A DNA stretch of 25,773 nucleotides from NCBI GenBank assembly GCA_043808895.1, contig JAZDEK010000204.1, positions 1 to 25,773 of the forward strand, written 5' to 3'. The stretch is from Pseudomonadota bacterium (GTDB lineage Bacteria; Bdellovibrionota; JAFGOL01). The notes beneath the pieces are model-generated. The model was not told the DNA's origin and made no database searches. It worked only from the letters and a program-made list of their open reading frames with translations. The position numbers and the translations under genes are program-made. Numbering within the stretch: the stretch's first letter is position 1; every line of letters begins with the position of its first letter. Shown here in pieces: positions 5,608 to 25,035 of this stretch.

Positions 5608-5621
5608 AGCTACCCTCTAAA

Positions 5622-7772: not shown

Positions 7773-7777
7773 TATTA

Positions 7778-8782
7778 TCATTTCCTCACGTACTTGTAAT
7801 ACGCCGCACAGGTTCCTTCGCTTGAGACCATGCACGGACCAATGGGATTATTGGGTGTGCAAAGTTTTCCATAGTACTTACAATCAACTGGGCTGTTCTT
7901 TCCCATGAGTATGTTCCCACACAAACATCCTTCGGCGTCTTTGATATTTTCATTTTTGAGCTCAAATCTTTTTGCCGCGTCAAATTCAGAATATCTTTCG
8001 CGTATCTTAAGCCCGGACATTTTTATTACACCAATGCCGCGCCAATCAGTATCAACATCCTCAAAAACTTCGTTCATTGCGGCCATTGCTATGGTGTTAC
8101 CCTGTTCAGAAACAACACCGGTGTAATCGTTCACCACAACACCTCTATTTATATTTTCGTTTATTATGGAGATCGCCCTCATTACATGTTGAGGTTCAAA
8201 ACCGGCTATTACGGACGGAACGTTATAGTTCTTTATAAAATCAAAGTACCTGCTTCCTGTTACAGCACTAACGTGCCCCGGAAGAAGAAGCCCGTCTATT
8301 TTACTATCTTTATCTTCCAATATTACTTTTAGAGCGGATGGAACGGTTTTATGCATGCAAAGAACTGAAATGTTCTTTACACCGTCCGCCGCAGCTTTTT
8401 TTATTATGGACGCTATAAGGGGAGCGGTTGTTTCAAAACCAACGCCGATAAAAACTATGTTCTTACCTTTATTCTCATCAGCCACTTTAAACGAGTCAAG
8501 TGGGCTATAGACCATCTTAACGTTCTTATAATTTTGCAAAGAGTCGCCGTTACAAGGAACCTTTACCATATCGCCAAAAGTCGTGATGATGACATCATCC
8601 ATGGTCGCAAGACGAAGAGCGTTATTTATATCGCTGGAAGACGTAACGCACACAGGGCAACCCGGCCCACTTATTAAATTAACGCCTTCAGGGAGCATTG
8701 AGCGAATACCGTGGCGCGCGATACTCATTGTGTGAGTGCCGCAAACTTCCATTATATTTATTTTTTTATTTTGTAAGTTCAA
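7778..8782 (-). CDS. hypD: Hydrogenase maturation protein HypD
   Basis: CGTH, GPGCPVC, GFETT, PGHVS and the C-terminal Fe-S region ending GPCMVSSEGTCAAYY. TTG start. Confidence 0.96.
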   Translation of the reverse strand: MNLQNKKINIMEVCGTHTMSIARHGIRSMLPEGVNLISGPGCPVCVTSSSDINNALRLATMDDVIITTFGDMVKVPCNGDSLQNYKNVKMVYSPLDSFKVADENKGKNIVFIGVGFETTAPLIASIIKKAAADGVKNISVLCMHKTVPSALKVILEDKDSKIDGLLLPGHVSAVTGSRYFDFIKNYNVPSVIAGFEPQHVMRAISIINENINRGVVVNDYTGVVSEQGNTIAMAAMNEVFEDVDTDWRGIGVIKMSGLKIRERYSEFDAAKRFELKNENIKDAEGCLCGNILMGKNSPVDCKYYGKLCTPNNPIGPCMVSSEGTCAAYYKYVRK

Positions 8783-8969
8783 TCAATTCCTCTGCGTCTT
8801 TTTTTGATATCTTCTGTATCGCGAATCCCGCGTGAACAAGAACATAATCGCCAACAGCAATGTCTTTAAGAAGCATCCCCGACGCTTCGAACTTCACGCC
8901 ATTAGATTCAACGAGCATATTCTGCTCATCCATCTTTTGTATTATCTTTACCGGTACCGCTAAACACAT
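8766..8969 (-). CDS. hypC: Hydrogenase maturation chaperone HypC
   Basis: N-terminal MCLAVP and GDYVLVHAGFAI; 67 aa. Confidence 0.96.
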   Translation of the reverse strand: MCLAVPVKIIQKMDEQNMLVESNGVKFEASGMLLKDIAVGDYVLVHAGFAIQKISKKDAEELIELTK

Positions 8970-8980
8970 TACTTAACACC

Positions 8981-11170
8981 TCAAATAAGGGCTTGTCCAA
9001 AAGACACGCCAGCGTCGTTTATGGGGACGTTATTATTAAAGAATAATTTTGTATACCCGTTTTTATTAAGCTCTTGTTTCACTAGTTCAGAGAGGAGCTT
9101 GTTCTGGAAACAGCCTCCGGAAAGAGCGATTATCTCACCATTTGATCCCTTTACGGTCTGTGTGATGTAGCCTGCCACCCAAACATGGAATTTATACGCA
9201 ATTTCGCTGACCGAAACTTTGTTCTCCATATCCTTATTTAGCTCCCGGATCATTTGTTTAAAATCTATTACGTCACCCGCGGTAACCGTATATGGTGTTT
9301 TAACAACGCCTTTAAATTCTTCGGCGTACTTTTGTAAGAGTATTGCCGCCTGCGCCTCATACTCAACATTCTTTATTACTCCGCACAAAGCAGCGACTGC
9401 GTCAAATAGCCGCCCCAAAGATGATGTAAGCGGACAATTTATGCCGCTATCGATAAGTGAGCTTATTAGAGTAAAACGTTCTTTTGAGACATTTGTCGCG
9501 GTGTTAAGCCCGGACATTTTTAAAACGGAAACCGCCAATCTGTCTACCTCGTTAATTGCTTTCTCGCCGCCGGGTAAAGGAAAATATTGCAAGTGAGACA
9601 GTCTTTCGAATTTTTTATAGTCAGCACCTATTTTAAGGAACTCAAATCCCCATATGTTGCCGTCTGCTCCATATCCTGTTCCGTCGCAAATAACACAAAG
9701 CACATCTTTGCCAAGTAACCCATGTTCCCCCATTACACTTAATGCGTGGGAGTGGTGGTGTTGGATTTTGTTATATTTATCGTCGTAGTTTTTGTACCCA
9801 GGGTGCATATCTATATTAATATTTTTTGTTTTAATATTCAAAAGTTTTAAAAAATCGTTAATTTGCTCTTTTTGATAATCGTAGTTCCTTATGTCGTCCA
9901 TGTCACCTATGTGCTGGGACATATAAATTTTGTTGCCAATTCTAACAGAGAACGTATTCTTAAGTTCAGCTCCTAAAGAAATTGTACCGGCGTGGTCGGC
10001 TGCGTTGGGCGCGATCTCAAACACCGACGGCACAAAACCTCTTGCGCGTCGTATCATCTGAATGTCGCCATTAACTATCGCAGAAATTGAATCATCACAG
10101 CGATGTACTATATCTCTGTCATTTGTGAGCGCAACATCCACCATTTTATCTTTTATAAGTTCATTAACCTCAGCATCACTTATGGCTATGGGGTCGTCTA
10201 TTTTATTGGCGGACGTCATTATCAAGGCATCAACGTGGCTAAAAATAAATTTATGAAGCGGAGTATAAGGAAGCATAACGCCAAGATAGTTATTGTCGGG
10301 CGATATATTATTAAGAGCGTCATCTTTCTTTCTTAGTAGAACAATTGGAGCGGCCATGGATAAAAGAAGTTTTTGTTCGCTTTCTGAAACAACGCAGTAT
10401 TTCCTGACAACACCAATATCTTTCATCATCAGCGCAAAGGGTTTATTCCCTCTCTTCTTTGCCCGTCTTAATCTTGATACAGTTTCGTTATTAAAAGGGT
10501 CGCAAGCTATATTAAAACCGCCCAACCCTTTCACAGCGACCACCTTACCGCTCTTTAATAACTTAACGGTCTCGGTAATTGGATCACCATCAGCTCCAAG
10601 AAGTCCCAATTTTGGCCCGCACTTTGGGCATGCGTTTGGCTGTGCATGAAATCTTCTATTAGACGGGTCGTTATATTCTTTCTCACAGTCGGTGCACATT
10701 TTAAACCCAGACATGCTGGTATATCTTCTGTCATACGGACGATCTTGTATAATTGTAAACCTGGGGCCACAGTTCGTGCAATTTGTGAATGGATATAAAT
10801 ACCTTCTATTTGTCTTATCAAGAATATCCTTAACGCAATCGTCGCATACAGCTATATCTGGCGATATATCCGTTACCTTTTCACCCTCTGGCTCGCTTCT
10901 TAATATCAAAAATTCCGTTTCGTTTTTTACAGGGATCTCTTGGATATTAGATCCTGTTACTTTTGACATCCTTGGAGGATAAGTGAATAGTCTATTAATA
11001 AAATCATTCAGGACATTATCTTCTGCTTCAGCTTCTATAGTAACGCCCTGACTGGTATTAACAACATAACCTGTAACTCCATATTCATGGGCGTACTTAT
11101 ACGTTGTAGGACGAAAACCTACGCCCTGAACTATGCCGGTCACTTTAATTCTAACTCTTTTTAAGTTCAC
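8981..11170 (-). CDS. hypF: Carbamoyltransferase HypF
   Basis: Acylphosphatase domain (GIVQGVGFRP), four CxxC zinc-finger motifs, YrdC-like domain (AVKGLGGF), and Kae1-like domain (QHHHSH, DGTGYG, NDAGVSFGQ). GTG start. Confidence 0.96.
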   Translation of the reverse strand: MNLKRVRIKVTGIVQGVGFRPTTYKYAHEYGVTGYVVNTSQGVTIEAEAEDNVLNDFINRLFTYPPRMSKVTGSNIQEIPVKNETEFLILRSEPEGEKVTDISPDIAVCDDCVKDILDKTNRRYLYPFTNCTNCGPRFTIIQDRPYDRRYTSMSGFKMCTDCEKEYNDPSNRRFHAQPNACPKCGPKLGLLGADGDPITETVKLLKSGKVVAVKGLGGFNIACDPFNNETVSRLRRAKKRGNKPFALMMKDIGVVRKYCVVSESEQKLLLSMAAPIVLLRKKDDALNNISPDNNYLGVMLPYTPLHKFIFSHVDALIMTSANKIDDPIAISDAEVNELIKDKMVDVALTNDRDIVHRCDDSISAIVNGDIQMIRRARGFVPSVFEIAPNAADHAGTISLGAELKNTFSVRIGNKIYMSQHIGDMDDIRNYDYQKEQINDFLKLLNIKTKNINIDMHPGYKNYDDKYNKIQHHHSHALSVMGEHGLLGKDVLCVICDGTGYGADGNIWGFEFLKIGADYKKFERLSHLQYFPLPGGEKAINEVDRLAVSVLKMSGLNTATNVSKERFTLISSLIDSGINCPLTSSLGRLFDAVAALCGVIKNVEYEAQAAILLQKYAEEFKGVVKTPYTVTAGDVIDFKQMIRELNKDMENKVSVSEIAYKFHVWVAGYITQTVKGSNGEIIALSGGCFQNKLLSELVKQELNKNGYTKLFFNNNVPINDAGVSFGQALI

Positions 11171-11810
11171 TAATTTTCACATCCAGAAAAGCGTTCCACT
11201 CAGCAAGTGTTTTTTCATTATTAGCTGATAATTTAAAGACCACTGCGTTTGGAGCAGCCTCTTTTACTTCTTTCTCTATTACTTTAAGGTCAACTTTGCA
11301 CGCGTCAGCAAGATCCACTTTATTTATTATAACAACGTTCGCGGTCTTAAACATTGTCGCATATTTCTTTGGTTTATCTTCGCCCTCTGTTATTGAATAA
11401 ACAAGAACCCTTAAGTTCTCGCCAAGGTCAAAGCTCGACGGACAGACAAGATTTCCAACGTTCTCTATCACCACAAAGTCCAGCTTATCAATTGGGAGTT
11501 CATTCAGAGCACCGCTTATCATTCTTGCGTCAAGGTGGCATCCTCCCTCGGTGTTTATCTGTACTATAGGAATATCTAGGTCCTGCAGTTTTTCTGCATC
11601 CCTTGATGTATAAAGATCACCCTCTATGACTGCCGTCTTATATTTTCTAATAAACGACTTTAATGAATTCTGCAGCAGCGTTGTTTTCCCTGCACCCGGA
11701 GAACTCACAAAATTAACGGAATATATTTTACGTTCAGCGAGCATTCGTCTTATATCCGCTCCGACGGTGTTATTTTTTATCATTACGTTCTTTAGAACTT
11801 TAATTTCCAT
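11151..11810 (-). CDS. hypB: Nickel insertion GTPase HypB (short form)
   Basis: P-loop SSPGAGKTT, metal site GGCHL, ENVGNLVCP and NKVD. No His-rich or CxxCGC N-terminal extension. Confidence 0.96.
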   Translation of the reverse strand: MEIKVLKNVMIKNNTVGADIRRMLAERKIYSVNFVSSPGAGKTTLLQNSLKSFIRKYKTAVIEGDLYTSRDAEKLQDLDIPIVQINTEGGCHLDARMISGALNELPIDKLDFVVIENVGNLVCPSSFDLGENLRVLVYSITEGEDKPKKYATMFKTANVVIINKVDLADACKVDLKVIEKEVKEAAPNAVVFKLSANNEKTLAEWNAFLDVKISELKKS

Positions 11811-12039
11811 CGTCCACCTCTATAGAGAAAACAAAAAAGCCTTCCTCGTTTGAATCTTCATAAATGAGTTCCGCTTTTTCAAGAGCGCTCCCTTTTATAA
11901 GTCCCAGAAAATACATCTCAAAAGAATCCCGCATTACAGTATTAGGTTTACCGACGCCAAAAGTGATCTTAGTAACATGTTTTGGCGTAGCCTCTTTTAT
12001 AATATCGAAAGCGTATTGTGCTACTTTTGCCTCATGCAT
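11800..12039 (-). CDS. hypA: HypA nickel metallochaperone, minimal form lacking the zinc-finger domain
   Basis: Starts with the MHE Ni-binding motif, ends with an SIEVD strand, and lies directly upstream of hypB (11-nt overlap). It is 79 aa long with no cysteine. Confidence 0.85.
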   Translation of the reverse strand: MHEAKVAQYAFDIIKEATPKHVTKITFGVGKPNTVMRDSFEMYFLGLIKGSALEKAELIYEDSNEEGFFVFSIEVDDGN

Positions 12040-12667
12040 ATTCTTTAAAAGCTTTTATCCTGCTTCTTATAAACCATATTATCCCTATTAATATTAAGAC
12101 GCCTATCACTATGTCAGCCTCGTGTATTATGTGGCGCAGGGTGCTGTTCTTGTCGTCCCACATCTCGCCAGCTTTCATCCCGGCCCATGCGAGTAGAAGA
12201 CACCAAGGATAGCTCCCTAAGAACGTATATATATGGAATCTTGCTCTTGGCATTTTTGCGACACCTGCCGGAAATGCTATAAAAGTTCTTATAACGGGAA
12301 GCAGCCTTGCTATGAATACCGCCGCACTTCCGTATTTCTCGAACCACTTTTCCGCTGATGCGAGTTCTTTCTTAGACATTAAAATATATTTTCCATACCT
12401 ATATATAGCAGCACGTCCGCCGAGCGAGCCTATCCAATACGCGATCTCGGAACCTACGTTACATCCAATGGCACCAGCCAACGCGGCAAGCCATAAATTC
12501 ATTTTACCGGCGTAAACAAGATATCCCGCGAAAGGCATTATAATTTCGCTCGGAAGAGGAATGCACGCTGATTCAATTGCCATTAACGCGACAATGCCGA
12601 AGTATCCAAGGCTTCCAATAGTTCCGACAGTGAACACCTTAAGGAATTCTATTATTGTTTCGACCAT
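12032..12667 (-). CDS. dedA: DedA-family membrane protein (UptA/YngC-like)
   Basis: IESACIPLPSEIIMPFAGY, YWIGSLGGR...YGKY, WFEKYG..AVFIARLLPVIRTFIAFPAG are DedA signatures. Confidence 0.92.
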   Translation of the reverse strand: MVETIIEFLKVFTVGTIGSLGYFGIVALMAIESACIPLPSEIIMPFAGYLVYAGKMNLWLAALAGAIGCNVGSEIAYWIGSLGGRAAIYRYGKYILMSKKELASAEKWFEKYGSAAVFIARLLPVIRTFIAFPAGVAKMPRARFHIYTFLGSYPWCLLLAWAGMKAGEMWDDKNSTLRHIIHEADIVIGVLILIGIIWFIRSRIKAFKEYA

Positions 12668-13164
12668 TATTTACCACCCGTTGTCTCTATTATCGCAGAG
12701 ACTATTTTATTCACCGCATCATCCACGTTCTTTGTAAGTTCCTGGCCAAAACTTAATTTCTCGGGCTCTATTCCTATAACAAGAGTTTCAAATTCAATGG
12801 ACTGCGAAAGATAATCAAGCATTACAGAAAGAGGAAGCACGTGAGTTGAGAACGTAACACCTGCTATATCTTTTCTGGGGATCAATGTTATGGTCCCTGG
12901 TTTTTTTCCCGTCTCTGCGGCGTCTATAATAATTAAGTGCGTGGTCTCGAACCTTTTAATATCCGAGGTATAATTCTCTGGGGCTGTTCCGCTGGAGAGT
13001 ACCTGGATATTTTTGTTTTCATTTTTCTTGTTTTTGGCAGCTAATCTTCCGGCAGCGTAATGTCCGGCACCGTCGTCTGATTTTATCTCGGAGCCTACAC
13101 CAAGAACGGTTATTTTAGGATCTTTCGCGCCTGTCTTAAAAAATTTGAGCAGCTCATCTTTCAT
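12667..13164 (-). CDS. hycI: Hydrogenase maturation endopeptidase (HycI-like)
   Basis: GVGSEIKSDDGAG, IIIDAA and STHVLPL motifs; 165 aa; located next to a group 4 hydrogenase. Confidence 0.9.
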   Translation of the reverse strand: MKDELLKFFKTGAKDPKITVLGVGSEIKSDDGAGHYAAGRLAAKNKKNENKNIQVLSSGTAPENYTSDIKRFETTHLIIIDAAETGKKPGTITLIPRKDIAGVTFSTHVLPLSVMLDYLSQSIEFETLVIGIEPEKLSFGQELTKNVDDAVNKIVSAIIETTGGK

Positions 13165-13507
13165 TTATCTTAACTCTGAGCTTTTTTCTGTCCAGCGCGG
13201 CAAGCTCGAACTTTGGAGTAATATCCAGCGCTTTTTTGGGGCACGAATCAACGCACTGAGCGCAATATAAACACTTATCCAACTCAACTATGGCGTCAAA
13301 TGTGTCGCCGAACTTTTCTATTGTTATGGCGTTAGACGGACAGTCTTTCATGCAAAGTTTGCAGCCTATACATTTTTCGGCATAGAACAAAAGTTTGCCC
13401 CTGAATTTATCCGGCATGTTAACAGCCTCGTAAGGATACTTTATGGTCGCAGGCTTTCTTGTCAAAGAATCAATAACCAACCTAAGCATTTTTCCGGGCC
13501 TTATCAT
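13154..13507 (-). CDS. 2[4Fe-4S] subunit of the hydrogenase (NuoI/HycF/MbhN-like)
   Basis: ATIKYPY...FRG leader and two CxxCxxCxxxCP motifs. Confidence 0.92.
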   Translation of the reverse strand: MIRPGKMLRLVIDSLTRKPATIKYPYEAVNMPDKFRGKLLFYAEKCIGCKLCMKDCPSNAITIEKFGDTFDAIVELDKCLYCAQCVDSCPKKALDITPKFELAALDRKKLRVKINER

Positions 13508-14439
13508 GATAGCACTCCCTTAATAATGAGGATAAATAAAAGCTGCAAGAATGCCGCTGGAGCAAAATATTTCCAGCACGCGTTGACCATTTGATCTATT
13601 CTTAAACGCGCAAAGAGCGTTCTTCCAAGCGATATAAGAAATACAACGGCCGTTACTTTAATTATATAGAGCACAAACCCTGTTACGGGCTCCAAATACA
13701 GACCAAACGGCAAAAATACCGCGGCAATTAAAGACGCGCCAACGACCATTTCTATGTCTATTCCCATTCTAAAAAGCGCCAATAATCTTCCTGAATATTC
13801 TGTAAATGTACCGCCAACAATTTCTGTTTCGGCTTCTGCCATATCAAAAGGAACTTTTTCAAGTTTTCCAAGCAGAGCTATTATAGAGATACAAAACGCC
13901 GCGATATTGAAAAGCATAAGCTCCGGGCGCGCATCATAGAACACGGTCATTGAGCTCAGCGACCAGGTGTTTGCAAGAAGCGCTGGAGACAATACCGCCA
14001 AGAATAAAAGCACTTCATAAGAAAAGAGCTGCGTTAACGTACGCATCGCGCCGACCATTGAGTATAGCGATGTTGAAGACCAGCCGGCCAAAAAGAAAGA
14101 AACCGTTGGTATTGTTAAAAGATACAGCACAACGATAATGTCGCCTGCGAACGGGAATAAAGATGATGGATGCCACAGCGGTATATAAAAGAAAGAAGCG
14201 ACGGACGCTGTTACAGCCAATATCGGCATAAACTTAAATAGTTTCTTGTCGGCACACTCCGGGATTATCTCTTCTTTTGCTGTTAGCTTAATAAAATCAG
14301 CGAAAGGCTGAAAGAACGGAGGGCCTTTCCTGTTTTGGAACCTAGCGTAAAGAATTCTGTCAACGTATTCAAACACCAGCGCCATTACGCACAGGAACAT
14401 GAATCCCGGGAAAATTAAGATATTAAAAAGCGTCATCAT
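13504..14439 (-). CDS. Membrane subunit (NuoH/HycD/EchB-like)
   Basis: ARFQNRKGPP..QPFADFIKL.AKE, PFDMAEAETEIVGG...EYSG and ARLRIDQ. Confidence 0.94.
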   Translation of the reverse strand: MMTLFNILIFPGFMFLCVMALVFEYVDRILYARFQNRKGPPFFQPFADFIKLTAKEEIIPECADKKLFKFMPILAVTASVASFFYIPLWHPSSLFPFAGDIIVVLYLLTIPTVSFFLAGWSSTSLYSMVGAMRTLTQLFSYEVLLFLAVLSPALLANTWSLSSMTVFYDARPELMLFNIAAFCISIIALLGKLEKVPFDMAEAETEIVGGTFTEYSGRLLALFRMGIDIEMVVGASLIAAVFLPFGLYLEPVTGFVLYIIKVTAVVFLISLGRTLFARLRIDQMVNACWKYFAPAAFLQLLFILIIKGVLS

Positions 14440-14445
14440 GTAGGA

Positions 14446-15669
14446 TCACTCCCCCTTACGATATTTTTTATTGAGCTCGGTAAAATCTATTCCGCGCTCT
14501 TTTTTATACCATTCAATGCTCTGAGCCCTTAAAGTACGCCAATCAACCGTTTTTGTTTCGCCTGTAGCAAAATTATTTACTTTTATTGTCCTATCTGTGC
14601 ACGAGAAACAAGGATCAATGGCCGCTATGGCTATTGGAACGTCGGCCAAGTTATTGCCTTTTAACATAGTCGCCACTGACTGAAGGTTGGCAAGAGTAGG
14701 AGCTCTTAGTTTAACTCTCTCCGGCTTATCTGTTCCATTCGTTTTAACATAGTGAACATCTTCTCCTCTTGGAGCTTCGTACCTTGATGTCGCTTCGCCC
14801 GCCGGAACACGGCGCGGGAATTTAACAGCTATATCTCCGTCCGGGATATTCTTTACAAGCTGACGGAGAATTTTATAAGTCTCCATAAGTTCGAATATCC
14901 TAACGACCGCTCTTCCATAAACATCACAGTGATTATCTGTTATTACGTTAAAATCTACCTCGTCGTAGGCTGCGTATGGATCGTCCTTACGTGTGTCTCT
15001 GGACATGCCGGATGCTCTTCCGGTAGGCCCTACTGTACCAAGTCTTAAAACGTCCTCTTTAGATATGTAACCAACACCTGAAAGTCTTTTCACGAACGTA
15101 ATTTCTTCCGTAGATACTTTCGCAAAATATTTTGTTCTCTCTTCAAGTATGTCAACAGCCTTTGAAATATCCAGCAGTTGCTCTTTGCTAAGATCTCTTC
15201 TTACACCGCCGTAGGTATTCATGCCGTAGTTAACCCTGTTACCGCTTATAGCAGCAAGAAGGTCCATAACAACTTCTCTGTCTCTCCATGTGTACATAAG
15301 AAGAGTGTCGAACCCAACTTCGTGAGCAGCAACACCAAGCCACAATAAATGGCTGTGCACTCTTTCAAGTTCTCCAATAATGGAACGTATATATTTTGCC
15401 CTTTTTGGTATCTCAGTGTTAGCCGCGTCTTCAACAGCCTGAATAAATGCTGTTGAGTGAGAGTGTGAACAAATACCGCACACTCTTTCTATAAGATACA
15501 TGGATTCTATGAACGTTCTTGATTCAGCCGCTTTTTCTATGCCCCTGTGGTTATAACCAAGACGCATCCCAAAATCCGTTATCCTCTCGCCATCCAGAGA
15601 GATAAGAAAACTTTCAGGCTCTTTTAACGCCGGATGTTGAGGCCCTATTGGTATTTTTACTGTTCCCAT
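14446..15669 (-). CDS. Group 4 [NiFe]-hydrogenase large (catalytic) subunit
   Basis: L1 motif ERVCGICSHSH, L2 motif DPCFSCTDR, NuoD-like N-terminus GPQHPALKEP, and a 47-aa C-terminal extension after the L2 Arg. Confidence 0.95.
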   Translation of the reverse strand: MGTVKIPIGPQHPALKEPESFLISLDGERITDFGMRLGYNHRGIEKAAESRTFIESMYLIERVCGICSHSHSTAFIQAVEDAANTEIPKRAKYIRSIIGELERVHSHLLWLGVAAHEVGFDTLLMYTWRDREVVMDLLAAISGNRVNYGMNTYGGVRRDLSKEQLLDISKAVDILEERTKYFAKVSTEEITFVKRLSGVGYISKEDVLRLGTVGPTGRASGMSRDTRKDDPYAAYDEVDFNVITDNHCDVYGRAVVRIFELMETYKILRQLVKNIPDGDIAVKFPRRVPAGEATSRYEAPRGEDVHYVKTNGTDKPERVKLRAPTLANLQSVATMLKGNNLADVPIAIAAIDPCFSCTDRTIKVNNFATGETKTVDWRTLRAQSIEWYKKERGIDFTELNKKYRKGE

Positions 15670-15670
15670 T

Positions 15671-16147
15671 TTACTTTCCCCCTTTGTCGAGCATGTCAGC
15701 TGTCCAATCTTTTCTTAAAGGATACTGACCGTCCGGCCAACCGTCTGGCAGAGGATATCTGTGGCCTTCCGGAAGACCCTGAACTTTCATTCCGAACATA
15801 TCAATAAGTTCTCTTTCATATAGTATCGCTCCGGGAAATGCGTCGCCTATTGAGTTAAGCACCGGATTACTTTTAGGAACGCTTGTCTTTAGATCGAACA
15901 CAACACCTTCAAAATTGCAGAGATGATAAATAGCTGAAAGGTTCTCTCCCTCGTCCAAGCCCGTTATCATGCATATCGCTTTAAAGTCCAAATCCTTAAC
16001 AACATGATCAAAGACTTGCCTGAAATTATTATATTCAACCTCGGCAGATATGCGTCTTGCTCTTTTTATTTTCATTTTGTCTTTCATATGGCCGAATTTT
16101 CCGGCAACACTGTCCGTTATTTTTTGTTCTTTGTTGAATTCGCTCAT
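15671..16147 (-). CDS. NuoC-like subunit (EchD/MbhK-like)
   Basis: ITGLD...YH, YERELIDMFGMKVQG.P and YPLRKDW. Confidence 0.92.
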   Translation of the reverse strand: MSEFNKEQKITDSVAGKFGHMKDKMKIKRARRISAEVEYNNFRQVFDHVVKDLDFKAICMITGLDEGENLSAIYHLCNFEGVVFDLKTSVPKSNPVLNSIGDAFPGAILYERELIDMFGMKVQGLPEGHRYPLPDGWPDGQYPLRKDWTADMLDKGGK

Positions 16148-16605
16148 TTTGATTCCCTCCGTTTTTTGCGCTCCCCTTCCTCGTAACTTGTGAGAAGTTT
16201 CACAACGCCGTCTATAATGGCTTCAGGACGAACAGGACATCCGGGGATGTACGCTGCGACCGGAATTGTAGAATCAATGCCGCCTTTCACGTTATAACAA
16301 CCGTTAAACACTCCGCCGGAAGACGCACATGTTCCTACAGCGACCACGAATTTGGGGGATGGCATTTGCTCGTATATCCTGACCAATCTTTTTTCTATCT
16401 GTCTTGTCACAGGCCCTGAGCATAAAAGAACGTCCGCGTGTCTTGGTGTACCTTTTAACAGCACGCCAAATCTTTCAAGATCAAATAGCGGTGTAAGTGT
16501 GGCAACTATCTCTATATCGCAAGCGTTACAGGCACCAGTATTAAAGTGGATGACCCACGGGGATTTTGTTCTAGACCATGTTACTAATTTATCCACAATC
16601 TTCAC
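16144..16605 (-). CDS. Group 4 [NiFe]-hydrogenase small subunit (NuoB/EchC/MbhJ-like)
   Basis: SPW...GACNACDIE, PRHADVLL..GPVT, GTCASSGG and IPGCPVRP: four cluster-ligating Cys. GTG start. Confidence 0.95.
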   Translation of the reverse strand: MKIVDKLVTWSRTKSPWVIHFNTGACNACDIEIVATLTPLFDLERFGVLLKGTPRHADVLLCSGPVTRQIEKRLVRIYEQMPSPKFVVAVGTCASSGGVFNGCYNVKGGIDSTIPVAAYIPGCPVRPEAIIDGVVKLLTSYEEGERKKRRESK

Positions 16606-16612
16606 TTGATGT

Positions 16613-16942
16613 TTACCTCCTGAACAATATCAAAAGACCTATTATCGCGCACACAACGTACAGAGCCGGAACAAATACATCGCTCATGCTCGACGGATTT
16701 GGAGCCGTGGCTATTACAAGAGCGACCACGTGCATGATCGTGAAAAAGAAAGCGAACGGAAAGAACTGTCTGTAATCCGGCTGCACCCTGTGGTCAGAAA
16801 CGTCTTCGCCGCAGGCATAGGCTTTATTCTTTCCAGGCTCGTCTTTTCCCTGAAAGGCCAACTTCTTCATAAAGTAAGCTTGAATGGAAACAACGACCAA
16901 GATAATAAAGAATACAATTGGCGGTAAAAGAAGATAATTCAT
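16613..16942 (-). CDS. NuoA-like membrane subunit (3 TM)
   Basis: First TM helix, a loop containing KNKAYACGE (equivalent to NuoA YECG), then two further TM helices. Confidence 0.8.
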   Translation of the reverse strand: MNYLLLPPIVFFIILVVVSIQAYFMKKLAFQGKDEPGKNKAYACGEDVSDHRVQPDYRQFFPFAFFFTIMHVVALVIATAPNPSSMSDVFVPALYVVCAIIGLLILFRR

Positions 16943-16950
16943 GCTTTCAC

Positions 16951-17271
16951 CTATCCTTTAAGATTTCTTAACTTTGTGACGTTAAGAGATCCAATTTTTT
17001 TAAATATCCCGAACACAATACCCGCCGCGACAGCTATAACGACGACCTCTATAACAATGAGCGTGATCGCCATTGTTTGCGCGAGTGCTAGACGGTTGCT
17101 AACATATCCCGCGAGTATTATCAAAAGCGTCACCGCCTTTGTAAGAAGCTCAAGTCCTATAAGTGTTCGGATAAAATTCCTGGTCACTGTTATGCAGTAA
17201 ATACCGCACACGAACAAGAGCACTATAAAAATACTAAACGTCCAAAAAAGGTTTGCTGATTCATTCATCAT
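16951..17271 (-). CDS. NuoK/MnhC-like membrane subunit
   Basis: NFIRTLIGLELL and ITLIVIEVV retain both NuoK-type glutamates. The start is likely 17271 or 17268 (GAGAGGG SD), not 17304. Confidence 0.88.
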   Translation of the reverse strand: MMNESANLFWTFSIFIVLLFVCGIYCITVTRNFIRTLIGLELLTKAVTLLIILAGYVSNRLALAQTMAITLIVIEVVVIAVAAGIVFGIFKKIGSLNVTKLRNLKG

Positions 17272-17764
17272 CTTTTGCCCTCTCTTTGAATAACACCACG
17301 ACACCGAAAACTCCGGCGAGCAGTATTATCATCTGACCTATTATATCTGTCGTCCTCATGCCCCATAGAACGTTCTTAACGTCGCCCTGGGGATAAAGAT
17401 TAAGTGTGTTGTTAAGTTCCGGATAAACCATATAAAATCCGAGGAAAACAAAAAGCCCGACGATGATAACAGGAAGATACCAGTATCTTTTTATCCTGTG
17501 CTTTGTCTGTTGTTTGAGTTCCGGCCTTGTTATCGGCTTTGTAAGGCTTATCGTGCTTACAAAAACTACGGTAATAAGTCCCGCGCATACAGAAAGCTCA
17601 AACACCGCAGCTAACGGAGAATCCAAGTTGAACATAAGAAGTGTGAGCACAATGCTTACGGCCGCAAGACCTATTGCCGACATCAAAAGGCTTCTCGTCA
17701 TAACAGCCCATACCGCGCAAAGCAGCATAATCGTAAGGAGAATTAAATTTAGATCTAAAGTCAC
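17261..17764 (-). CDS. NuoJ-like (DUF4040/MnhB-related) membrane subunit
   Basis: 167 aa, 5 hydrophobic segments, SPLAAVFELSVCAGLITV, C-terminal LWGMRTTDIIGQ; sits immediately before the NuoK-like gene. GTG start. Confidence 0.82.
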   Translation of the reverse strand: MTLDLNLILLTIMLLCAVWAVMTRSLLMSAIGLAAVSIVLTLLMFNLDSPLAAVFELSVCAGLITVVFVSTISLTKPITRPELKQQTKHRIKRYWYLPVIIVGLFVFLGFYMVYPELNNTLNLYPQGDVKNVLWGMRTTDIIGQMIILLAGVFGVVVLFKERAKDDE

Positions 17765-19164
17765 TTCAGCACCCCCGCTACCGGAATTATTATTGTATCA
17801 ACAAAGAACGGAAAGAATACTCCAACGCCTATTGTTATTATCGCGAGTATAACGGCAGGAAGAACCAGGCTCATCCCAGCCTCTTTTATTGAAAGCACTT
17901 TGAGTTTGCCAAAGAACACTCTTCTTTGAAGAGATAAAAAGTACGCGAGCGTTATTAAGCTTCCAAGTATCGCGGCAGCGGCGTAGCCGTATTGGCCGAC
18001 CTTCCACAGCGCTATTATTATAATAAGTTTGCTCCAGAACCCTGAAAGCGGAGGAATTCCAGCTGCTGATAAAAAAGCCACAACAGATGTCCAGCCCGTG
18101 AACGGCATCACTTTTGATAAGCCTCCCATGGAGTCCATGTCGCGCGTGCCCGTCTGTTTTTCCACAGCAGCCGCGTTAACAAAGAGCTGGGCCTTGAATA
18201 TTGAGTGATTAAAAAGATGGAACACAGCACCTGCTATTCCAAGTTCTGTTCCTGTACCAAGTGCCAAAATTATATAACCAACTTGGCTGATACTTGAGTA
18301 CGCGAGCATCCTTTTCATATCTTTTTGCGTTAAAGCGGCAAACGCGCCGATAAATATCGATATAATTCCGACGAGAAGAAGAATGCTTTTTATCGTCTCA
18401 TTAAATCCGAAAACTTCTGTCACCAAACGGATCATCGTGTAGATACCGGTCGTTTTTGTGACTATACCGGCCAAGAACACCGACGTACTCGCGGGAGCCG
18501 CGGTATACGCGTCGGGCAGCCAGCCGTGGAAAGGGACAAGCCCTCCTTTTATAAAAAGTCCGGCCATAAAAAGTATAACGGCTGTTAGCACAAAGAAATT
18601 ATTTGATCCCTGAACACCATCCCTGACGCTCAAGAACGTTGTGTCTCCAGAGTACATCATAAGAAGAGAGATGGATGTCAGCATCATTATCGTAGCAATA
18701 GCGGACAGCACTAAATATTTAAAAGAGCCCTCGAACGCCAGCTCGTCTTCCTGAATTGCTATCAATATAAAGGATGCAACCGCTGTTATTTCTAAAAATA
18801 CGTACATCGAAAATATGTCTCTTACCATAACAACGCCGTTCATTCCGACCACAGCAAGAAGTATCAGGTTAACAAAGTTAAAAGACTTTTTAGGGTCTTT
18901 AATTGTACCTGCCGCGACCAAGAGGGAGCAAAACGCGACAATGCCTACGGAAAGAATAAGAACAAGGCTCAATCTATCTAGCTCCAAATTAAAAGCCGTT
19001 GTGGAAAGCACAATGTTCAGCTTGTTATTAAAGATAACAAGAAAGCTTTGCAGGAACGTTGCGAACAATCCCAGCCAAAGCGCAACGCTTCGCATCGCTT
19101 TTTTAAAGCCGACGTTCAGTATAATTACAGAGACGAGCGGAATAAGAATTAATAAGAGTGCCAC
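17761..19164 (-). CDS. Antiporter-like subunit 3 (NuoN/MrpD-like)
   Basis: YVFLEI, KGGLVPFHGWLPDAY, KRMLAYSSISQVGY and GIPPLSGFWSK; 467 aa. Confidence 0.92.
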   Translation of the reverse strand: MALLLILIPLVSVIILNVGFKKAMRSVALWLGLFATFLQSFLVIFNNKLNIVLSTTAFNLELDRLSLVLILSVGIVAFCSLLVAAGTIKDPKKSFNFVNLILLAVVGMNGVVMVRDIFSMYVFLEITAVASFILIAIQEDELAFEGSFKYLVLSAIATIMMLTSISLLMMYSGDTTFLSVRDGVQGSNNFFVLTAVILFMAGLFIKGGLVPFHGWLPDAYTAAPASTSVFLAGIVTKTTGIYTMIRLVTEVFGFNETIKSILLLVGIISIFIGAFAALTQKDMKRMLAYSSISQVGYIILALGTGTELGIAGAVFHLFNHSIFKAQLFVNAAAVEKQTGTRDMDSMGGLSKVMPFTGWTSVVAFLSAAGIPPLSGFWSKLIIIIALWKVGQYGYAAAAILGSLITLAYFLSLQRRVFFGKLKVLSIKEAGMSLVLPAVILAIITIGVGVFFPFFVDTIIIPVAGVLK

Positions 19165-19178
19165 TTTAAAATATCCCC

Positions 19179-21014
19179 CTATTTAACCGTTTTTATTATC
19201 CAGACAGCTAGAAGTATCATCCCAGCCAGAGACCACAATATGTACATGGAAAAATTCCCTGTATGAGCTTTCTTAATACTGTTCGAGAATACGTTCGCCG
19301 TTTTAACGCTGAATACGTTATAGACCCAGTCGGTCGCTCTATCTACTCCGAACGCGGCGTAAGAGAACGCGTTAATGAATTTCAATCCTATATCGTAAGG
19401 GTCGAACACTTTTCTTTCGGCCTTATCATATATACCGTGAAGCACCGGCGCGTAATGTATGTGATCCACAGCACCTATGCCTTTACCAGTCTTTTTAACG
19501 CCGTACCTATGGTTAAGGTACGCGGCAGTAAGAACAACTATCGTTACAATGACAAGTGTAACGTTCGCATGAGTTTCGCCAAGGATATTCCCGTCGAGAG
19601 CCATATTCGAAAGCACAGGTTGAATTAAATGATAAATTGGATATGAGTTATAAACGCCAAAGAATATACAGAACGCGGCTATTACTATCATCGGAAGATA
19701 CATCGTCCATGGAACTTCCTTGATGTTGTTGTACTGCTCATCCCTTTTTCCTAAGAAAGCGGCATGACCAAGCTTTAAGAACGACGCGGCTGTTAAAAAC
19801 GACCCCAGCGCTGCAGCGCCGTAGAATATCCATCCTCTTTCAAGAGCGCCATCGTATATAAGTTCCTTTGAAAAGAATCCGTTGAACGGAGGAACTCCGG
19901 ATATGGAAAATGCTGCAACCAAAAAGCACGCAAAAGTTATCGGCATCTTTAAACCAATGCCGCCAAGTTTATTTAAGTCAGTGGTACCTGTTTGTCTTTC
20001 TACGGCACCGCCGGCAAGGAATAATCCGTCTTTATACAGAGCATTATTTATCATGTGGAAAAGTCCACCGATTATACCTACAGGAACGCATGTCCCAATG
20101 CCAAGTATCATGTATCCGACCTGACTGATGGCGTGATATGAGAGAAGTTTCTTAAAGTCGTGTTGAACAAGTGCCATCATAACAGCGGCGAGTATTGTTA
20201 CAGCGCCGATAGTCATCATTGTGTAACTTAGCCACGAGCCGTGGTCAAGTTTGAATAAGTCCAAAGATATTCTGGCAAGGAAATAGATTCCAACTATTTT
20301 TTCTATCGATCCGGGAATGAACGCCATGAACGGGAGCGGAGCATCCTTTGCGGCGTCGGGTATCCAGCTATGGAAAGGCATAGCACCCGCTTTTCCAATA
20401 GCTCCTATCATAAGAAGAAGGAACGCGACGCTGCCCAACCCTTGGGCAGGAATATTAATTCCGGACATTGTGAAAGTGCCGGCGATAAATCCTGTAAGAG
20501 CGATACCGGCCATAAAACAAATATCAGCAACGCCGTTAATTACGAATGCCTTAACCGCTGTTTTAAATGATTCCTTTCCGCCTATAGCTATGAAACCAAA
20601 TAGAGTTAGGAGCAGTCCTTCCCAGAAGAAAAGCATCATGATGAGGTTATTAGAAAGAAGAACTCCGTTCACTTGAGCGATAGTTAAAAGAAAATACGCG
20701 TAGAACTGTGACACATTATCTTTTCCTTTCATGAACGACGCTGAATAAAGCGCTATTAAAAGCGCGAACGCAGCCGCTGAAAGGATCATAAAGCTCGCGA
20801 AAGGATAAACTCTCAGCGAGAACTCAAGCCCCCATCCGCCGCCCCAAGGAAAAGAAAATAGCATTTCCTTTCTAAAAAGAGGGAATACTAAAATTAAATT
20901 TGTCGCCGCAACAAGTATCGCGAAGACCTCCCTATAGTACGCTCTTCTTGGAAGAAGAAAAACAAGTGCGGCAGCCACCGCCGGAATAATTAAAGTCCAA
21001 AGCATTATATTCAT
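19179..21014 (-). CDS. Antiporter-like subunit 2 with a NuoL/MrpA-type C-terminal lateral helix
   Basis: FFWEG, KAGAMPFHSWIPDA, KKLLSYHAISQVGY and GFFSKE. 611 aa, with an amphipathic extension ending HTGNFSMY and a final TM helix. Confidence 0.92.
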   Translation of the reverse strand: MNIMLWTLIIPAVAAALVFLLPRRAYYREVFAILVAATNLILVFPLFRKEMLFSFPWGGGWGLEFSLRVYPFASFMILSAAAFALLIALYSASFMKGKDNVSQFYAYFLLTIAQVNGVLLSNNLIMMLFFWEGLLLTLFGFIAIGGKESFKTAVKAFVINGVADICFMAGIALTGFIAGTFTMSGINIPAQGLGSVAFLLLMIGAIGKAGAMPFHSWIPDAAKDAPLPFMAFIPGSIEKIVGIYFLARISLDLFKLDHGSWLSYTMMTIGAVTILAAVMMALVQHDFKKLLSYHAISQVGYMILGIGTCVPVGIIGGLFHMINNALYKDGLFLAGGAVERQTGTTDLNKLGGIGLKMPITFACFLVAAFSISGVPPFNGFFSKELIYDGALERGWIFYGAAALGSFLTAASFLKLGHAAFLGKRDEQYNNIKEVPWTMYLPMIVIAAFCIFFGVYNSYPIYHLIQPVLSNMALDGNILGETHANVTLVIVTIVVLTAAYLNHRYGVKKTGKGIGAVDHIHYAPVLHGIYDKAERKVFDPYDIGLKFINAFSYAAFGVDRATDWVYNVFSVKTANVFSNSIKKAHTGNFSMYILWSLAGMILLAVWIIKTVK

Positions 21015-22444
21015 TTTACGACTCCCATAAGTTGTTGAACTGTCGTGTAAACATAGTCGGCCGGATAATTAATGAAAATTCCGCCGGCCAAAGAAAGCAC
21101 CGCAAGCAGCGCAACGCTGAATAACATAACGAACGAGCCCTCTTTTACAGGATGTTCAACTTTTGTCTGTCCCATAAATATAAGGATAAATATCCTGAAT
21201 AAATAAATTATCGTCATTACAGCGCCGAATAGGAACATTAGCGCTATCCAAACATGCCCACTCTGCAGAGTGCCATTAATAACAAGGAACTTTGAGAAGA
21301 AGCCTCCAAGCGGAGGAATTCCCATTACAGAGAACGCGCATATAAGGAATGCCATCGCTGTAACAGGCATTGTCTTTATAAGGCCGCCCATCTTTGTAAT
21401 GTCTTTTGTATGCGCGGACTGTTCAATTATACCGGCGCAAAGAAATAGTCCGGCTTTTGCCATGCCGTGCATCAATATATATAGTAAGCCACCCGCAAGA
21501 GCGACTTCGTTCCCGATAGAAAGCCCAAGGAATATAAAACCGATCTGGCTAATAGTTGAATACGCTATTATTCTCTTCATATCTTTGTCTATCATGGCGG
21601 CACCGGCTGAAACCAGGGCGCTTGCTCCCGCAATAACAGGGACAACTGTGTGCCATACGGCATCCAGGGTCATTGTCGCGACAAAAAGTCTCGCGTAAAC
21701 ATAGACACCGATCTTAACAAGAACAGCGGCGTGGAGAAGAGCAGTAACAGGAGACGGCGCAACACCGGCGTCCGGAAGCCATGTATGAAGTGGCAACGTC
21801 GCGGATTTTGAAAGTATACCGAACAGTATTAGCGCCATTGCGATATTGGGTACTGTTGAGTGTCCAATAACACCAAGGTCAAATGATCCTGTTGCTTCAT
21901 ATACATATAAGAAGCCGATAAGCATCATCAGGGCACCGAACACTGTAACAAGGAAAGCCTTGTCCGCTTTGAGCACGTGTTCTTTTTCCCTAAAGAATCC
22001 TATTAATCTCCAGCACGCTATTGCCGTGATCTCCCAGAATAAATAGAGACAGATCAAATTCCTGGAGAAGATTATTCCCATCATTGAGCCAAGGAACAGA
22101 ACCACCATAAAGTAGTATTCGTTCCTTTCTTCGTAGTGGCTTATGTAACCAAACGAGTAAAGCACGATGATAGATCCAACCAACGACGATACTATCGCCA
22201 TAAATACGGCAAGCCCGTCCGCGTAGAAATAATTCATAGCTAAAGTTTGACTGTAAAGGGCTGTGACTGTTTCGCCTCTAAGTACCATCGGTACTAAAGC
22301 AAAAGAGCACACTAATGAGGTCATTACCATTAGCAGTGCGCAGACGTTTCTTAACCCCTCTGATAGCCTTCCAAGCACGGGAAGTAGAAAAGACCCGAGT
22401 ACGGGTACTAACACTGTAAGCAGAATTAAAGATTCGTTCTTCAT
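21011..22444 (-). CDS. Antiporter-like subunit 1 (NuoL/EchA-like core, no lateral helix)
   Basis: LFWEI, KSATLPLHTWLPDAGVAPSPVTALLHAAVLVKIGVY, KRIIAYSTISQIGF and GIPPLGGFFSK; 477 aa. Confidence 0.92.
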   Translation of the reverse strand: MKNESLILLTVLVPVLGSFLLPVLGRLSEGLRNVCALLMVMTSLVCSFALVPMVLRGETVTALYSQTLAMNYFYADGLAVFMAIVSSLVGSIIVLYSFGYISHYEERNEYYFMVVLFLGSMMGIIFSRNLICLYLFWEITAIACWRLIGFFREKEHVLKADKAFLVTVFGALMMLIGFLYVYEATGSFDLGVIGHSTVPNIAMALILFGILSKSATLPLHTWLPDAGVAPSPVTALLHAAVLVKIGVYVYARLFVATMTLDAVWHTVVPVIAGASALVSAGAAMIDKDMKRIIAYSTISQIGFIFLGLSIGNEVALAGGLLYILMHGMAKAGLFLCAGIIEQSAHTKDITKMGGLIKTMPVTAMAFLICAFSVMGIPPLGGFFSKFLVINGTLQSGHVWIALMFLFGAVMTIIYLFRIFILIFMGQTKVEHPVKEGSFVMLFSVALLAVLSLAGGIFINYPADYVYTTVQQLMGVVK

Positions 22445-22584: not shown

Positions 22585-23367
22585 TTATTTTAGATTATTC
22601 GCGTATAAAAAAGGCTCATCCTTCATAAGAGCGTCATACTGCGCGTCAAAAATAACGGTTTTATTTTCGGAAAGCACCACCGCGCGTTTAAACACTCCTT
22701 TCACATATTCAAAATCGTGCGTGGCACAAATTATAGTTTTTCCTTCGCGATTTAAATTCACAAGGAGTTCACTTATAAATCTTTTTGTTTTCGGGTCTAT
22801 CCCGTTCATCGGCTCATCAAGCACAAGGACTTTTGGCTCCATGACAAGAACGCTCGCCAGCGCCACTTTCTTTTTCTCACCCTCGCTTAAAAAATAAGGA
22901 ACCCTTTGGGAGAGTTTTTGTATACCGAGGAGTTCAAGATATTTTTTCACTTTGAGTCTTGTTTGTTCTTCATTCATACCCATTTGCATCGGAGCGAACG
23001 CGACTTCTTCATATACGCTGGAGCAAAAAAGTTGCGTTTCGGGGTTTTGGAACACGAATCCTATCGTGGAGTGAAAAGTTCTTGCCGCGTTAATATTGCT
23101 CAAATATTTCTCCGTTATGTGCTGGCCGTTAAAAAAGTAGCCCCTGCGTGAGTCGGTATTTTTATCGTTCGCGTCGGCATTATTGCCTTTCGTGTCAGCG
23201 GCGAAAACCAACCCGTTAATAAGTTTAAGGAGCGTGGATTTGCCACTCCCGTTCGGGCCTATTATCGCGACAGAGTCGCCTTCAGAAATACTGAGCGTGA
23301 TGTTGTTAAGCGCGGGGATATCGTCGTAGTTGAAGCTTATGTTCTTTATTGTGATAATCTCTTTCAA
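22585..23367 (-). CDS. nikO: ECF Ni/Co transporter ATPase (NikO/CbiO)
   Basis: Walker A GPNGSGKST, VFQNPE, LSEGEKKK, Walker B VLDEP and an H-loop. TTG start overlaps the nikQ stop. The Ni assignment comes from context. Confidence 0.88.
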   Translation of the reverse strand: MKEIITIKNISFNYDDIPALNNITLSISEGDSVAIIGPNGSGKSTLLKLINGLVFAADTKGNNADANDKNTDSRRGYFFNGQHITEKYLSNINAARTFHSTIGFVFQNPETQLFCSSVYEEVAFAPMQMGMNEEQTRLKVKKYLELLGIQKLSQRVPYFLSEGEKKKVALASVLVMEPKVLVLDEPMNGIDPKTKRFISELLVNLNREGKTIICATHDFEYVKGVFKRAVVLSENKTVIFDAQYDALMKDEPFLYANNLK

Positions 23368-24119
23368 ATCAACGCTCCTGAAAATAACATCAGCAGGATA
23401 AGGGCGATATACATATAATCGGACAGCCCTAATTTCAACAAGGACGTTCTTTTATATTCGCCGTTAAATCCTCGGCATACCATGGCGTCATACATACTTT
23501 CAGACATGTTCTTTGATTTAATGAATAGAACCCCGAACAGACCAAACATACTTTCGCGCGCTGTTTTGAATTCTCCGACGGTCTTTTTTTTGAGCGCCAA
23601 TAGCATATTGACCGCGGTATCGCCGACTATGACAATGTGTTTTACTGTAATTCCGACAATAAATATAATTACGTCGGGAACAAATAAAACCTTAAGGGAC
23701 TGCGTAATTTGGACCGGGTTGGTTGAATAAACAAAGACGTTGACGCAAAGAACACTGACAGCAATTTTAAGCACGATAAAAAAGGAAGCTGTTGTTTTGA
23801 ATAAAAAAACAGACGGCAACATAATAATAAACGCAAATAGAACAGAAGCACCGGCAACGGTTAATATTTTTTTTAATTCCCGACGCGGAAAAATAGCCGC
23901 TGCGACCGTAACAATAATGCCAATAAACAGAACGTACGACAGTTTTCCGGATAGACTTACGGACAGTACCAACACCAGCACAGACAAAAACTTTACGATA
24001 GGATTTACTGACGACAGAAAGGACGGTGATGTTTTCTCGCGTCTTAAATTGGAAAATACCCCAAAAAAAGAAAGAACGTTTTTCTCTATAAAATTACCTT
24101 TAATAATTCGTACGCGCAT
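23364..24119 (-). CDS. nikQ: ECF Ni/Co transporter T component (NikQ/CbiQ)
   Basis: Hydrophobic; VNPIVK at the N-terminus and MYDAMVCRGF (ECF-T motif); lies between the S component and the ATPase. Confidence 0.86.
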   Translation of the reverse strand: MRVRIIKGNFIEKNVLSFFGVFSNLRREKTSPSFLSSVNPIVKFLSVLVLVLSVSLSGKLSYVLFIGIIVTVAAAIFPRRELKKILTVAGASVLFAFIIMLPSVFLFKTTASFFIVLKIAVSVLCVNVFVYSTNPVQITQSLKVLFVPDVIIFIVGITVKHIVIVGDTAVNMLLALKKKTVGEFKTARESMFGLFGVLFIKSKNMSESMYDAMVCRGFNGEYKRTSLLKLGLSDYMYIALILLMLFSGALI

Positions 24120-25035
24120 TAAAAACTCTTTTTAAGGCTCTCGTTATAAAAAGTACCAGCGCTACTCCTATCACTGCCGACAACATATAAGAAAGCGCCC
24201 CGTTCTTAATGAACGGGATAGCATAGTCCGGGATTATGGAATTGAACTTAAATCCATTTTGCCTATCCCATTCACCCCACGCTGTGCCTGATACCAGCAT
24301 CCCCAGCGGCGACAAAAGGATCATAAAAACAATGACAGCGTACGCTGGTTTTAAATTGACCTCATAAATTTTCCTTACGGACACCGGAGAAACTCTTTTT
24401 ATAAAATTATAAATACCGACGGTAATAAATCCCTCTATCACTCCAACAACCAATAAATGCGGGATCATCATAGCGGGAAGCGCGATACTTAAAGGATATG
24501 GGGAATACATGGGCAGTCCCGCGACATTTTTAAAAAGCAGAGGCTGAATGCCGAACTCAAGCGCTGTAAAAAGGGCGCCAATATTTAAAGACATATAAGA
24601 CGCGACAAAAAGAGCGGCACTATTCCATTTATCCGATCTAAATAACGACCTTAAGACCATGTAGATAAAGTATCCGCTGAACGTCATAACAAAAGCAATG
24701 TTGAACGCGTTAACCCCAAAGGATAAGAGCCCTCCATCGCCAAAGAACACAGCCTGTATAAAAAGCGCGATGCTTAATGATACACACGCGGCAAATGGCC
24801 CGATAAGAACTGATAAAAGTGTCGCCCCTACGGCGTGCCCTGTGGTGCCACCAGGGAGCGGGATATTGAACATCATTAAAAGAAAAGAATAAGCGGCGAA
24901 TATCCCTACTAAAACTATATTCTTGGATGAGAATTCTTTTTTTACTTTCTTAACAGCCCATGCCCACACCGGTACCATAACAGCACCCGCTGCAGCACAA
25001 GTTGAGGGACTTAAATAGTTGTCAGGAACATGCAT
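24100..25035 (-). CDS. nikM: ECF nickel S component, NikM fused to a NikN/PDGLE-like domain
   Basis: Metal-binding N-terminus MHVPDNYLS, GGTTGHAVG, QAVFFGDGG; C-terminal LSPLG...AWGEWD...IPDY domain. Confidence 0.9.
   Translation of the reverse strand: MHVPDNYLSPSTCAAAGAVMVPVWAWAVKKVKKEFSSKNIVLVGIFAAYSFLLMMFNIPLPGGTTGHAVGATLLSVLIGPFAACVSLSIALFIQAVFFGDGGLLSFGVNAFNIAFVMTFSGYFIYMVLRSLFRSDKWNSAALFVASYMSLNIGALFTALEFGIQPLLFKNVAGLPMYSPYPLSIALPAMMIPHLLVVGVIEGFITVGIYNFIKRVSPVSVRKIYEVNLKPAYAVIVFMILLSPLGMLVSGTAWGEWDRQNGFKFNSIIPDYAIPFIKNGALSYMLSAVIGVALVLFITRALKRVFNARTNY

Follow-up and report, generated by a model that had tools for sequence, protein, structure and literature searches.

In the accepted scheme of nickel insertion into [NiFe] hydrogenases, NTP-bound HypB binds HypA and nickel moves to the N-terminal site of HypA; hydrolysis frees Ni-HypA, which gives the metal to a large subunit carrying Fe(CN)2CO, and endopeptidase cleavage comes last (PMC12134894). 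A 2019 review places a zinc site in all HypAs, and the field's picture is that of a protein always provided with two metal sites. In Thermococcus kodakarensis HypA (3A43/3A44), the nickel domain consists of the N-terminal ~70 residues and the C-terminal strand, and an insertion of ~50 residues carries two CxxC pairs and His98. Complexes of this protein are known with the ATPase-type HypB (5AUN/5AUP) and with HyhL (5YXY/5YY0), and in the HypAB complex a nanomolar nickel site recruits His98 of the inserted region (PMC7055735). In Helicobacter pylori HypA (6G81, 2KDX), the nickel domain supplies all the proposed nickel ligands, namely the N-terminal amine, His2, Glu3 and Asp40 (PMC7055735), and several mutants in the zinc-site cysteines have no more hydrogenase activity than a hypA knock-out (PMC5557546). 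Given these mutant defects and the part taken by His98 of T. kodakarensis in binding nickel, it is not self-evident that the zinc domain can be lost without consequence.

The window analysed here, a stretch of 25,773 nucleotides of contig JAZDEK010000204.1, encodes a 79-aa protein that is a HypA homologue missing one of the two defining features of its family. It is a real, conserved HypA variant without the whole zinc-binding domain. Its gene belongs to a locus arranged on a single strand, in which a nickel importer and a group-4 [NiFe] hydrogenase are accompanied by hycI, dedA and the series hypA-hypB-hypF-hypC-hypD-hypE:

22585..25035, minus strand: ECF-type Ni/Co importer, composed of CbiM with a fused PDGLE domain (NikMN-like), CbiQ and an ABC ATPase (Pfam)
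13154..22444, minus strand: 11-gene hydrogenase operon, including the large subunit (Pfam)
14446..15669, minus strand: [NiFe] hydrogenase large subunit, group 4, MbhL/HycE-like (PF00346 and PF00374)
12667..13164, minus strand: hycI-type hydrogenase maturation endopeptidase (PF01750, 80.3 bits)
12032..12667, minus strand: dedA (membrane protein with a VTT domain), between hycI and hypA (PF09335, 88.3 bits)
11800..12039, minus strand: hypA, short form, an open reading frame matching Pfam HypA, with the nickel domain only and confidently modelled by AF2
11151..11810, minus strand: hypB, GTPase with a metal site in the G-domain only (Cys91-His92, Cys123) (TIGR00073)
8981-11170, minus strand: hypF (Pfam)
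8766-8969, minus strand: hypC, open reading frame starting MCLAVP (Pfam)
7778-8782, minus strand: hypD (Pfam)
6780-7835, minus strand: hypE (Pfam)

The hydrogenase operon encodes three antiporter-like subunits, NuoJ/K/A/B/C-like subunits, a NuoD-like large subunit, a NuoH-like subunit and a ferredoxin. The large subunit has P. furiosus MbhL as its best PDB match (6CFW_L, E 2.5e-98), retains both CxxC motifs in its translation and is the sole PF00374 match in the assembly; it is presumed to be the recipient of nickel. About 44 of its residues follow the C-terminal DPCFSCTDR motif, which would be quite a long tail for HycI to cleave off. The operon as a whole offers counterparts of 11 complex I core subunits, with antiporter-like subunits of 477, 611 and 467 aa, whereas Ech has fewer such counterparts. 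Downstream of hypE, at 4828-6731 on the minus strand, lie genes for a protein with nine WG repeats and for a homologue of phospholipase A1; in a related locus, L031, two genes of matching sizes follow hypE at 14308-16218, the second being a phospholipase A1 by Pfam.

The short hypA is tightly packed between its neighbours. The dedA stop and the hypA start overlap by 8 nt, the hypA stop and the hypB start by 11 nt, and the GAGGTG Shine-Dalgarno sequence of hypB is located within hypA. At the hypA start itself the Shine-Dalgarno sequence is weak and distant, and translation of hypA may depend on coupling to dedA. The position of dedA is kept in L031 (8373-9008), where HypA is 66% identical to that of the window; in another genus of the family (e.g., L018) dedA is absent and hycI abuts hypA. 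The order hycI-hypA-hypB-hypF-hypC-hypD-hypE is retained in relatives. A look for evidence of expression turned up no public sequencing run covering this locus. An earlier note on this DNA, made from the sequence alone, had described hypA as coupled on both sides; both overlaps were found as it described them, but coupling to dedA turned out to be specific to a sub-lineage, relatives having hycI next to hypA.

The translated short HypA has 79 residues, starts with MHE and contains two histidines and no cysteine. The Pfam HypA family, PF01155, has a cut-off of 28.9 bits; short HypA scores 31.7 bits (E 1.7e-7), matching just profile positions 1-67 of 112, and 29.5 bits in a scan of the whole genome. 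Under TIGR00100, the NCBIfam equivalog model for hypA, it falls far below the cut-off (21.1 against 88.1 bits). Within the gene two elements are of particular relevance:

12031..12039, minus strand: codons of Met1-His2-Glu3, the predicted nickel-binding N-terminal motif (conservation in short and long forms)
11839..11859, minus strand: EDSNEEG, residues 61-67, the end of strand 2 and the turn at the zinc-domain insertion point (N64/E65) (alignment and model)

Profile alignments define the limits of the missing part. With a profile of the short family, residues 1-71 of the T. kodakarensis chain are aligned and, separately, its last strand at 117-134; with a profile widened to 74 HypAs of both lengths, residues 1-68 and 123-134 are aligned. 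The T. kodakarensis zinc domain, ~50 residues in length, forms one insertion between N64 and E65 of short HypA, and H. pylori HypA has the same single insertion, past which the alignment covers the first residues only. Columns 84-119 of the 74-sequence alignment, which fall between N64 and E65, are occupied in long forms only. The zinc site, normally a CxxC-Xn-CxxC domain placed before the last strand, is therefore absent from short HypA, which has no cysteine and leaves the insertion columns empty. Because the zinc domain aligns as a single insertion at N64/E65, EDSNEEG can be read as a hairpin turn at the usual site of that domain.

Outside the insertion, short and long HypAs share an identical conservation pattern in the 74-sequence alignment. 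In both forms M1 and H2 never vary, and E3 is conserved at 98-100%; G30 is conserved, an acidic residue is retained at position 38, and F42, F44, K49, G50, T51, E54, A56 and L58 are common to both, as is the terminal S-I-E-V strand. D38 was considered as the counterpart of H. pylori Asp40 and rejected, the profile alignment setting Asp40 opposite M36.

The predicted structure agrees with these alignments. An AlphaFold (AF2) model of short HypA, built on the 74-sequence alignment, reaches a pLDDT of 93.2, with a helix at residues 2-17, a strand at 22-29, a second helix at 37-48 and strands at 57-62 and 68-75. In a Foldseek search of the PDB, the top 14 matches of the model are all HypA entries. 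VIA-align superposes 79 of 79 residues onto T. kodakarensis HypA (3A43_B, Z 13.3, 1.7 A) and 78 residues onto H. pylori HypA (6G81, Z 11.9, 2.0 A), against a score of 7.1 for the next unrelated fold. In the model, short HypA is a complete HypA nickel domain, with the hairpin turn E61-G67 exactly at the site where the zinc domain is otherwise inserted. The nickel-domain fold and the MHE N-terminus are what it has in common with the T. kodakarensis protein, and the fold is likewise that of H. pylori HypA. The earlier note had read the gene in much the same way, as a 79-aa, MHE-starting, cysteine-free HypA that keeps the helices and strands of the nickel domain and the terminal strand and has the EDSNEEG linker in place of the zinc domain; the translation and the above-cut-off PF01155 match, the single N64/E65 insertion and the superposition over 78-79 residues bear this reading out.

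A protein shorter than any characterised HypA, and under the equivalog cut-off, might be taken for the functionless product of a decaying gene or of an assembly artefact. Comparison with relatives leaves this hardly credible. A database search with short HypA returned ten proteins, 79-97 aa long and with identities down to 50%. A short, 84-aa orthologue with an MHE start is present in each of the family's eight other genomes (one copy cut by a contig end); none of these close relatives was found to have a full-length HypA instead. The same architecture recurs in many independent metagenome assemblies. Among eight orthologues (79-84 aa, 48-94% identity), pairwise dN/dS, taken where synonymous sites are unsaturated, ranges from 0.07 to 0.30, and the closest pair has a dS of 0.18 and a dN of 0.03: short hypA is under purifying selection. 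In addition, the limits of the deletion coincide exactly with those of the domain, the predicted fold is confident and the overlapping start and stop codons are conserved. Decay and artefact are thereby effectively refuted.

Another way to account for the missing domain is that its function is provided in trans, short HypA being one half of a split system. The provider could be a separate small protein with a zinc ribbon or some different partner, for instance SlyD or a large-subunit domain. The starting point for this idea is a set of small open reading frames in several relatives that match PF01155 weakly, at profile positions 70-108. The matches to the zinc-ribbon part of the profile, whether from the window's genome or from its relatives, proved on inspection to be FmdB-type zinc-ribbon proteins, with thiC beside their genes, and ribosomal protein L32, with fabD beside its gene. 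Neither is linked to the hyp genes, and a split gene was rejected. The hyp locus, both in the window and in relatives, contains no zinc-ribbon open reading frame. Provision in trans is accordingly regarded as quite improbable. Nor was a second, canonical HypA above the PF01155 cut-off found elsewhere, whether in the window's own assembly or in the eight relatives; a second hypA might be missing from the former, which is 78% complete, but the three relatives that are 91-94% complete are also without one.

The partner encoded next to short HypA is itself reduced. HypB scores 241.5 bits with TIGR00073 (cut-off 121.2), and among solved structures it comes closest to H. pylori HypB (4LPS, E 6e-48), with which it shares the Cys-His...Cys site. 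Its sequence contains neither an N-terminal CxxCGC motif nor a His-rich stretch, leaving Cys91-His92...Cys123 as the sole metal motif, just as the earlier note had it in ascribing to HypB a G-domain metal site only. This GTPase-type HypB differs from the partner of T. kodakarensis HypA, which is of the Mrp/MinD ATPase type.

Modelling of a 1:1 HypA-HypB complex, a step the earlier note had proposed, gave a score of 0.64 against 0.00 for the best of three controls, this score being a model confidence that may partly reflect family likeness. Of 80 solved complexes, 58 attain the mark used for such scores, as do 2 of 110 mismatched pairs; these counts are only a rough guide here because our own alignment was used for the complex model. 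For comparison, no solved structure of HypA bound to a GTPase-type HypB is known. In the interface, on which all three model runs agree, Met1, His2, helix 1 and the last strand of HypA face residues 1-13, 90-94 and 122-127 of HypB, the two loops including Cys91 and His92 (90-94) and Cys123 (122-127). Met1-His2 would accordingly sit next to Cys91, His92 and Cys123 in the modelled complex, the geometry expected for metal hand-over. Since residues 3-211 of HypB correspond, in profile coordinates, to residues 78-286 of E. coli HypB, the contacting N-terminal segment falls where HypA-binding residues of the E. coli protein have reportedly been mapped.

The same interface is also what would be expected if short HypA were an adaptor that docks HypB onto the large subunit, nickel passing directly from HypB to the enzyme and the MHE motif being kept to contact the HypB metal site and not to hold nickel alone. 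Two further points are in keeping with such a role: the high-affinity site of the T. kodakarensis type needs a histidine from the region that is missing here, and the family of short HypAs has no conserved extra histidine. Yet the ligands proposed for H. pylori HypA are all found within the nickel domain (PMC7055735), and conservation of M1-H2-E3 in short HypAs is as strict as in canonical ones. A pure adaptor role therefore seems unlikely.

The reading preferred here is that the gene probably encodes a working, zinc-free nickel metallochaperone made of the HypA nickel domain only, with a predicted helix-strand-helix-strand-strand fold. Nickel would be taken up by the NikMNQO-type importer, whose genes stand first in the locus, and would be held by the G-domain site of HypB (Cys91, His92, Cys123). 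Short HypA would dock onto the first 13 residues and the metal-site loops of HypB, and nickel would pass to the HypA N-terminus (Met1 amine, His2 and Glu3), as in a site of the H. pylori/E. coli type, which draws all its ligands from the nickel domain. After GTP hydrolysis, HypA would hand the metal to the group-4 large subunit loaded with Fe(CN)2CO, which HycI would then trim. The earlier note had seen in hypA and hypB a functional minimal nickel-delivery pair, and this view is supported by the short forms of the relatives, the failure to find a canonical hypA in the genomes searched, the selection acting on the gene, the fold, the locus and the complex model, from which we infer the function.

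By analogy with H. pylori, a HypA consisting of the nickel domain only could in principle form a ligand site of the H. pylori type, and the zinc domain appears to be unnecessary in this lineage. A high-affinity site of the T. kodakarensis type is impossible in short HypA, since the inserted region that supplies His98, with its two CxxC pairs, is absent. Likewise, as short HypA has no zinc site, it would have no pH or nickel sensing in the H. pylori style and no zinc-site dynamics.

Zinc-free HypA is not peculiar to the genome under study; it is widespread. A search of 1.84 billion representative proteins with the short-family profile gave 75 matches, and these together with near relatives, minus fragments and unrelated repeats, formed a set of 79 sequences. 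More than half of this set (48 of the 79, a ratio biased to short forms because the query profile was made from them) are metagenomic proteins of 77-91 aa without a CxxC pair, with an MHE start and the same domain limits; 27 are canonical, with two CxxC motifs and mostly 112-122 aa, and four are odd forms. Short, CxxC-free HypAs are common in metagenomes. Within the window's phylum, an even sample of 201 genomes contains HypA in 16, full length in four and short in 12, the latter from four taxonomic families.

Short HypAs occur in other settings as well. At three loci of the same phylum, L021 (genome G129), L022 (G142) and L024 (G186), a short HypA is accompanied by hypF, hypC, hypD and hypE nearby, and tblastn finds no hypB within the 18-20 kb fetched; in the window's lineage, hypB adjoins and overlaps hypA, and HypF is full length. 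The large subunit adjacent to the short HypA of L021 is 22% identical to that of the window. Given this low identity and the loci without hypB, short HypA is not tied to the window's type of hydrogenase or to an adjacent hypB.

The evolutionary origin of the form can be approached from an 81-column HypA tree, which is unrooted and largely unresolved; on the best tree the short/long label needs 13 changes, yet a tree that unites the short forms in one clade is not rejected by the AU test (p = 0.258), and the zinc domain may have been lost once or many times. It is tempting to speculate that zinc-free HypA represents one old and widespread lineage, possibly even the ancestral architecture before the insertion of the zinc ribbon. 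The 79-aa HypA and its G-domain-only HypB would then be a true minimal nickel-insertion machine, and the zinc domain a later regulatory addition. The AU result and the conservation pattern common to short and long forms make a single old lineage compatible with the data; we put this scenario forward as a rather unlikely possibility.

A full-text search of open-access papers found no description of a zinc-free HypA, and the protein studied here is apparently one instance of a widespread, undescribed form. Its conservation departs from the notion of a HypA with two metal sites. The role of the zinc domain is debated, being seen as structural, regulatory or a matter of partner recognition, and zinc-free HypAs offer a natural test. 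They provide a handle for experiments on whether the nickel domain alone can take nickel from HypB and deliver it, on the affinity of the MHE site without a second domain, and on the benefit of the zinc domain to organisms that have retained it. There are practical implications too: equivalog models miss short HypAs in annotation, and the form bears on minimal maturation sets for hydrogenase production in other hosts.

Some members of the wider set depart from both architectures. P0018 (113 aa) and P0019 (111 aa) are of canonical length and have no CxxC pair, a different acidic or low-complexity segment replacing the zinc domain or following its position. The representatives of short forms P0020 and P0028 come from contigs of less than 2 kb, which tell nothing about gene context. 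P0002 (97 aa), encoded on a metagenome contig of 1084 bases, is the closest to the HypA of the window, with 84% identity in the alignment and 70% by BLASTP. In P0002 the loop that links helix 1 to strand 1 has an insert of 18 residues, among them Cys-Ser-Cys-Ser-Gly-His. This insert may be a metal-binding loop gained recently by a protein with no other cysteine, or an oddity of assembly.
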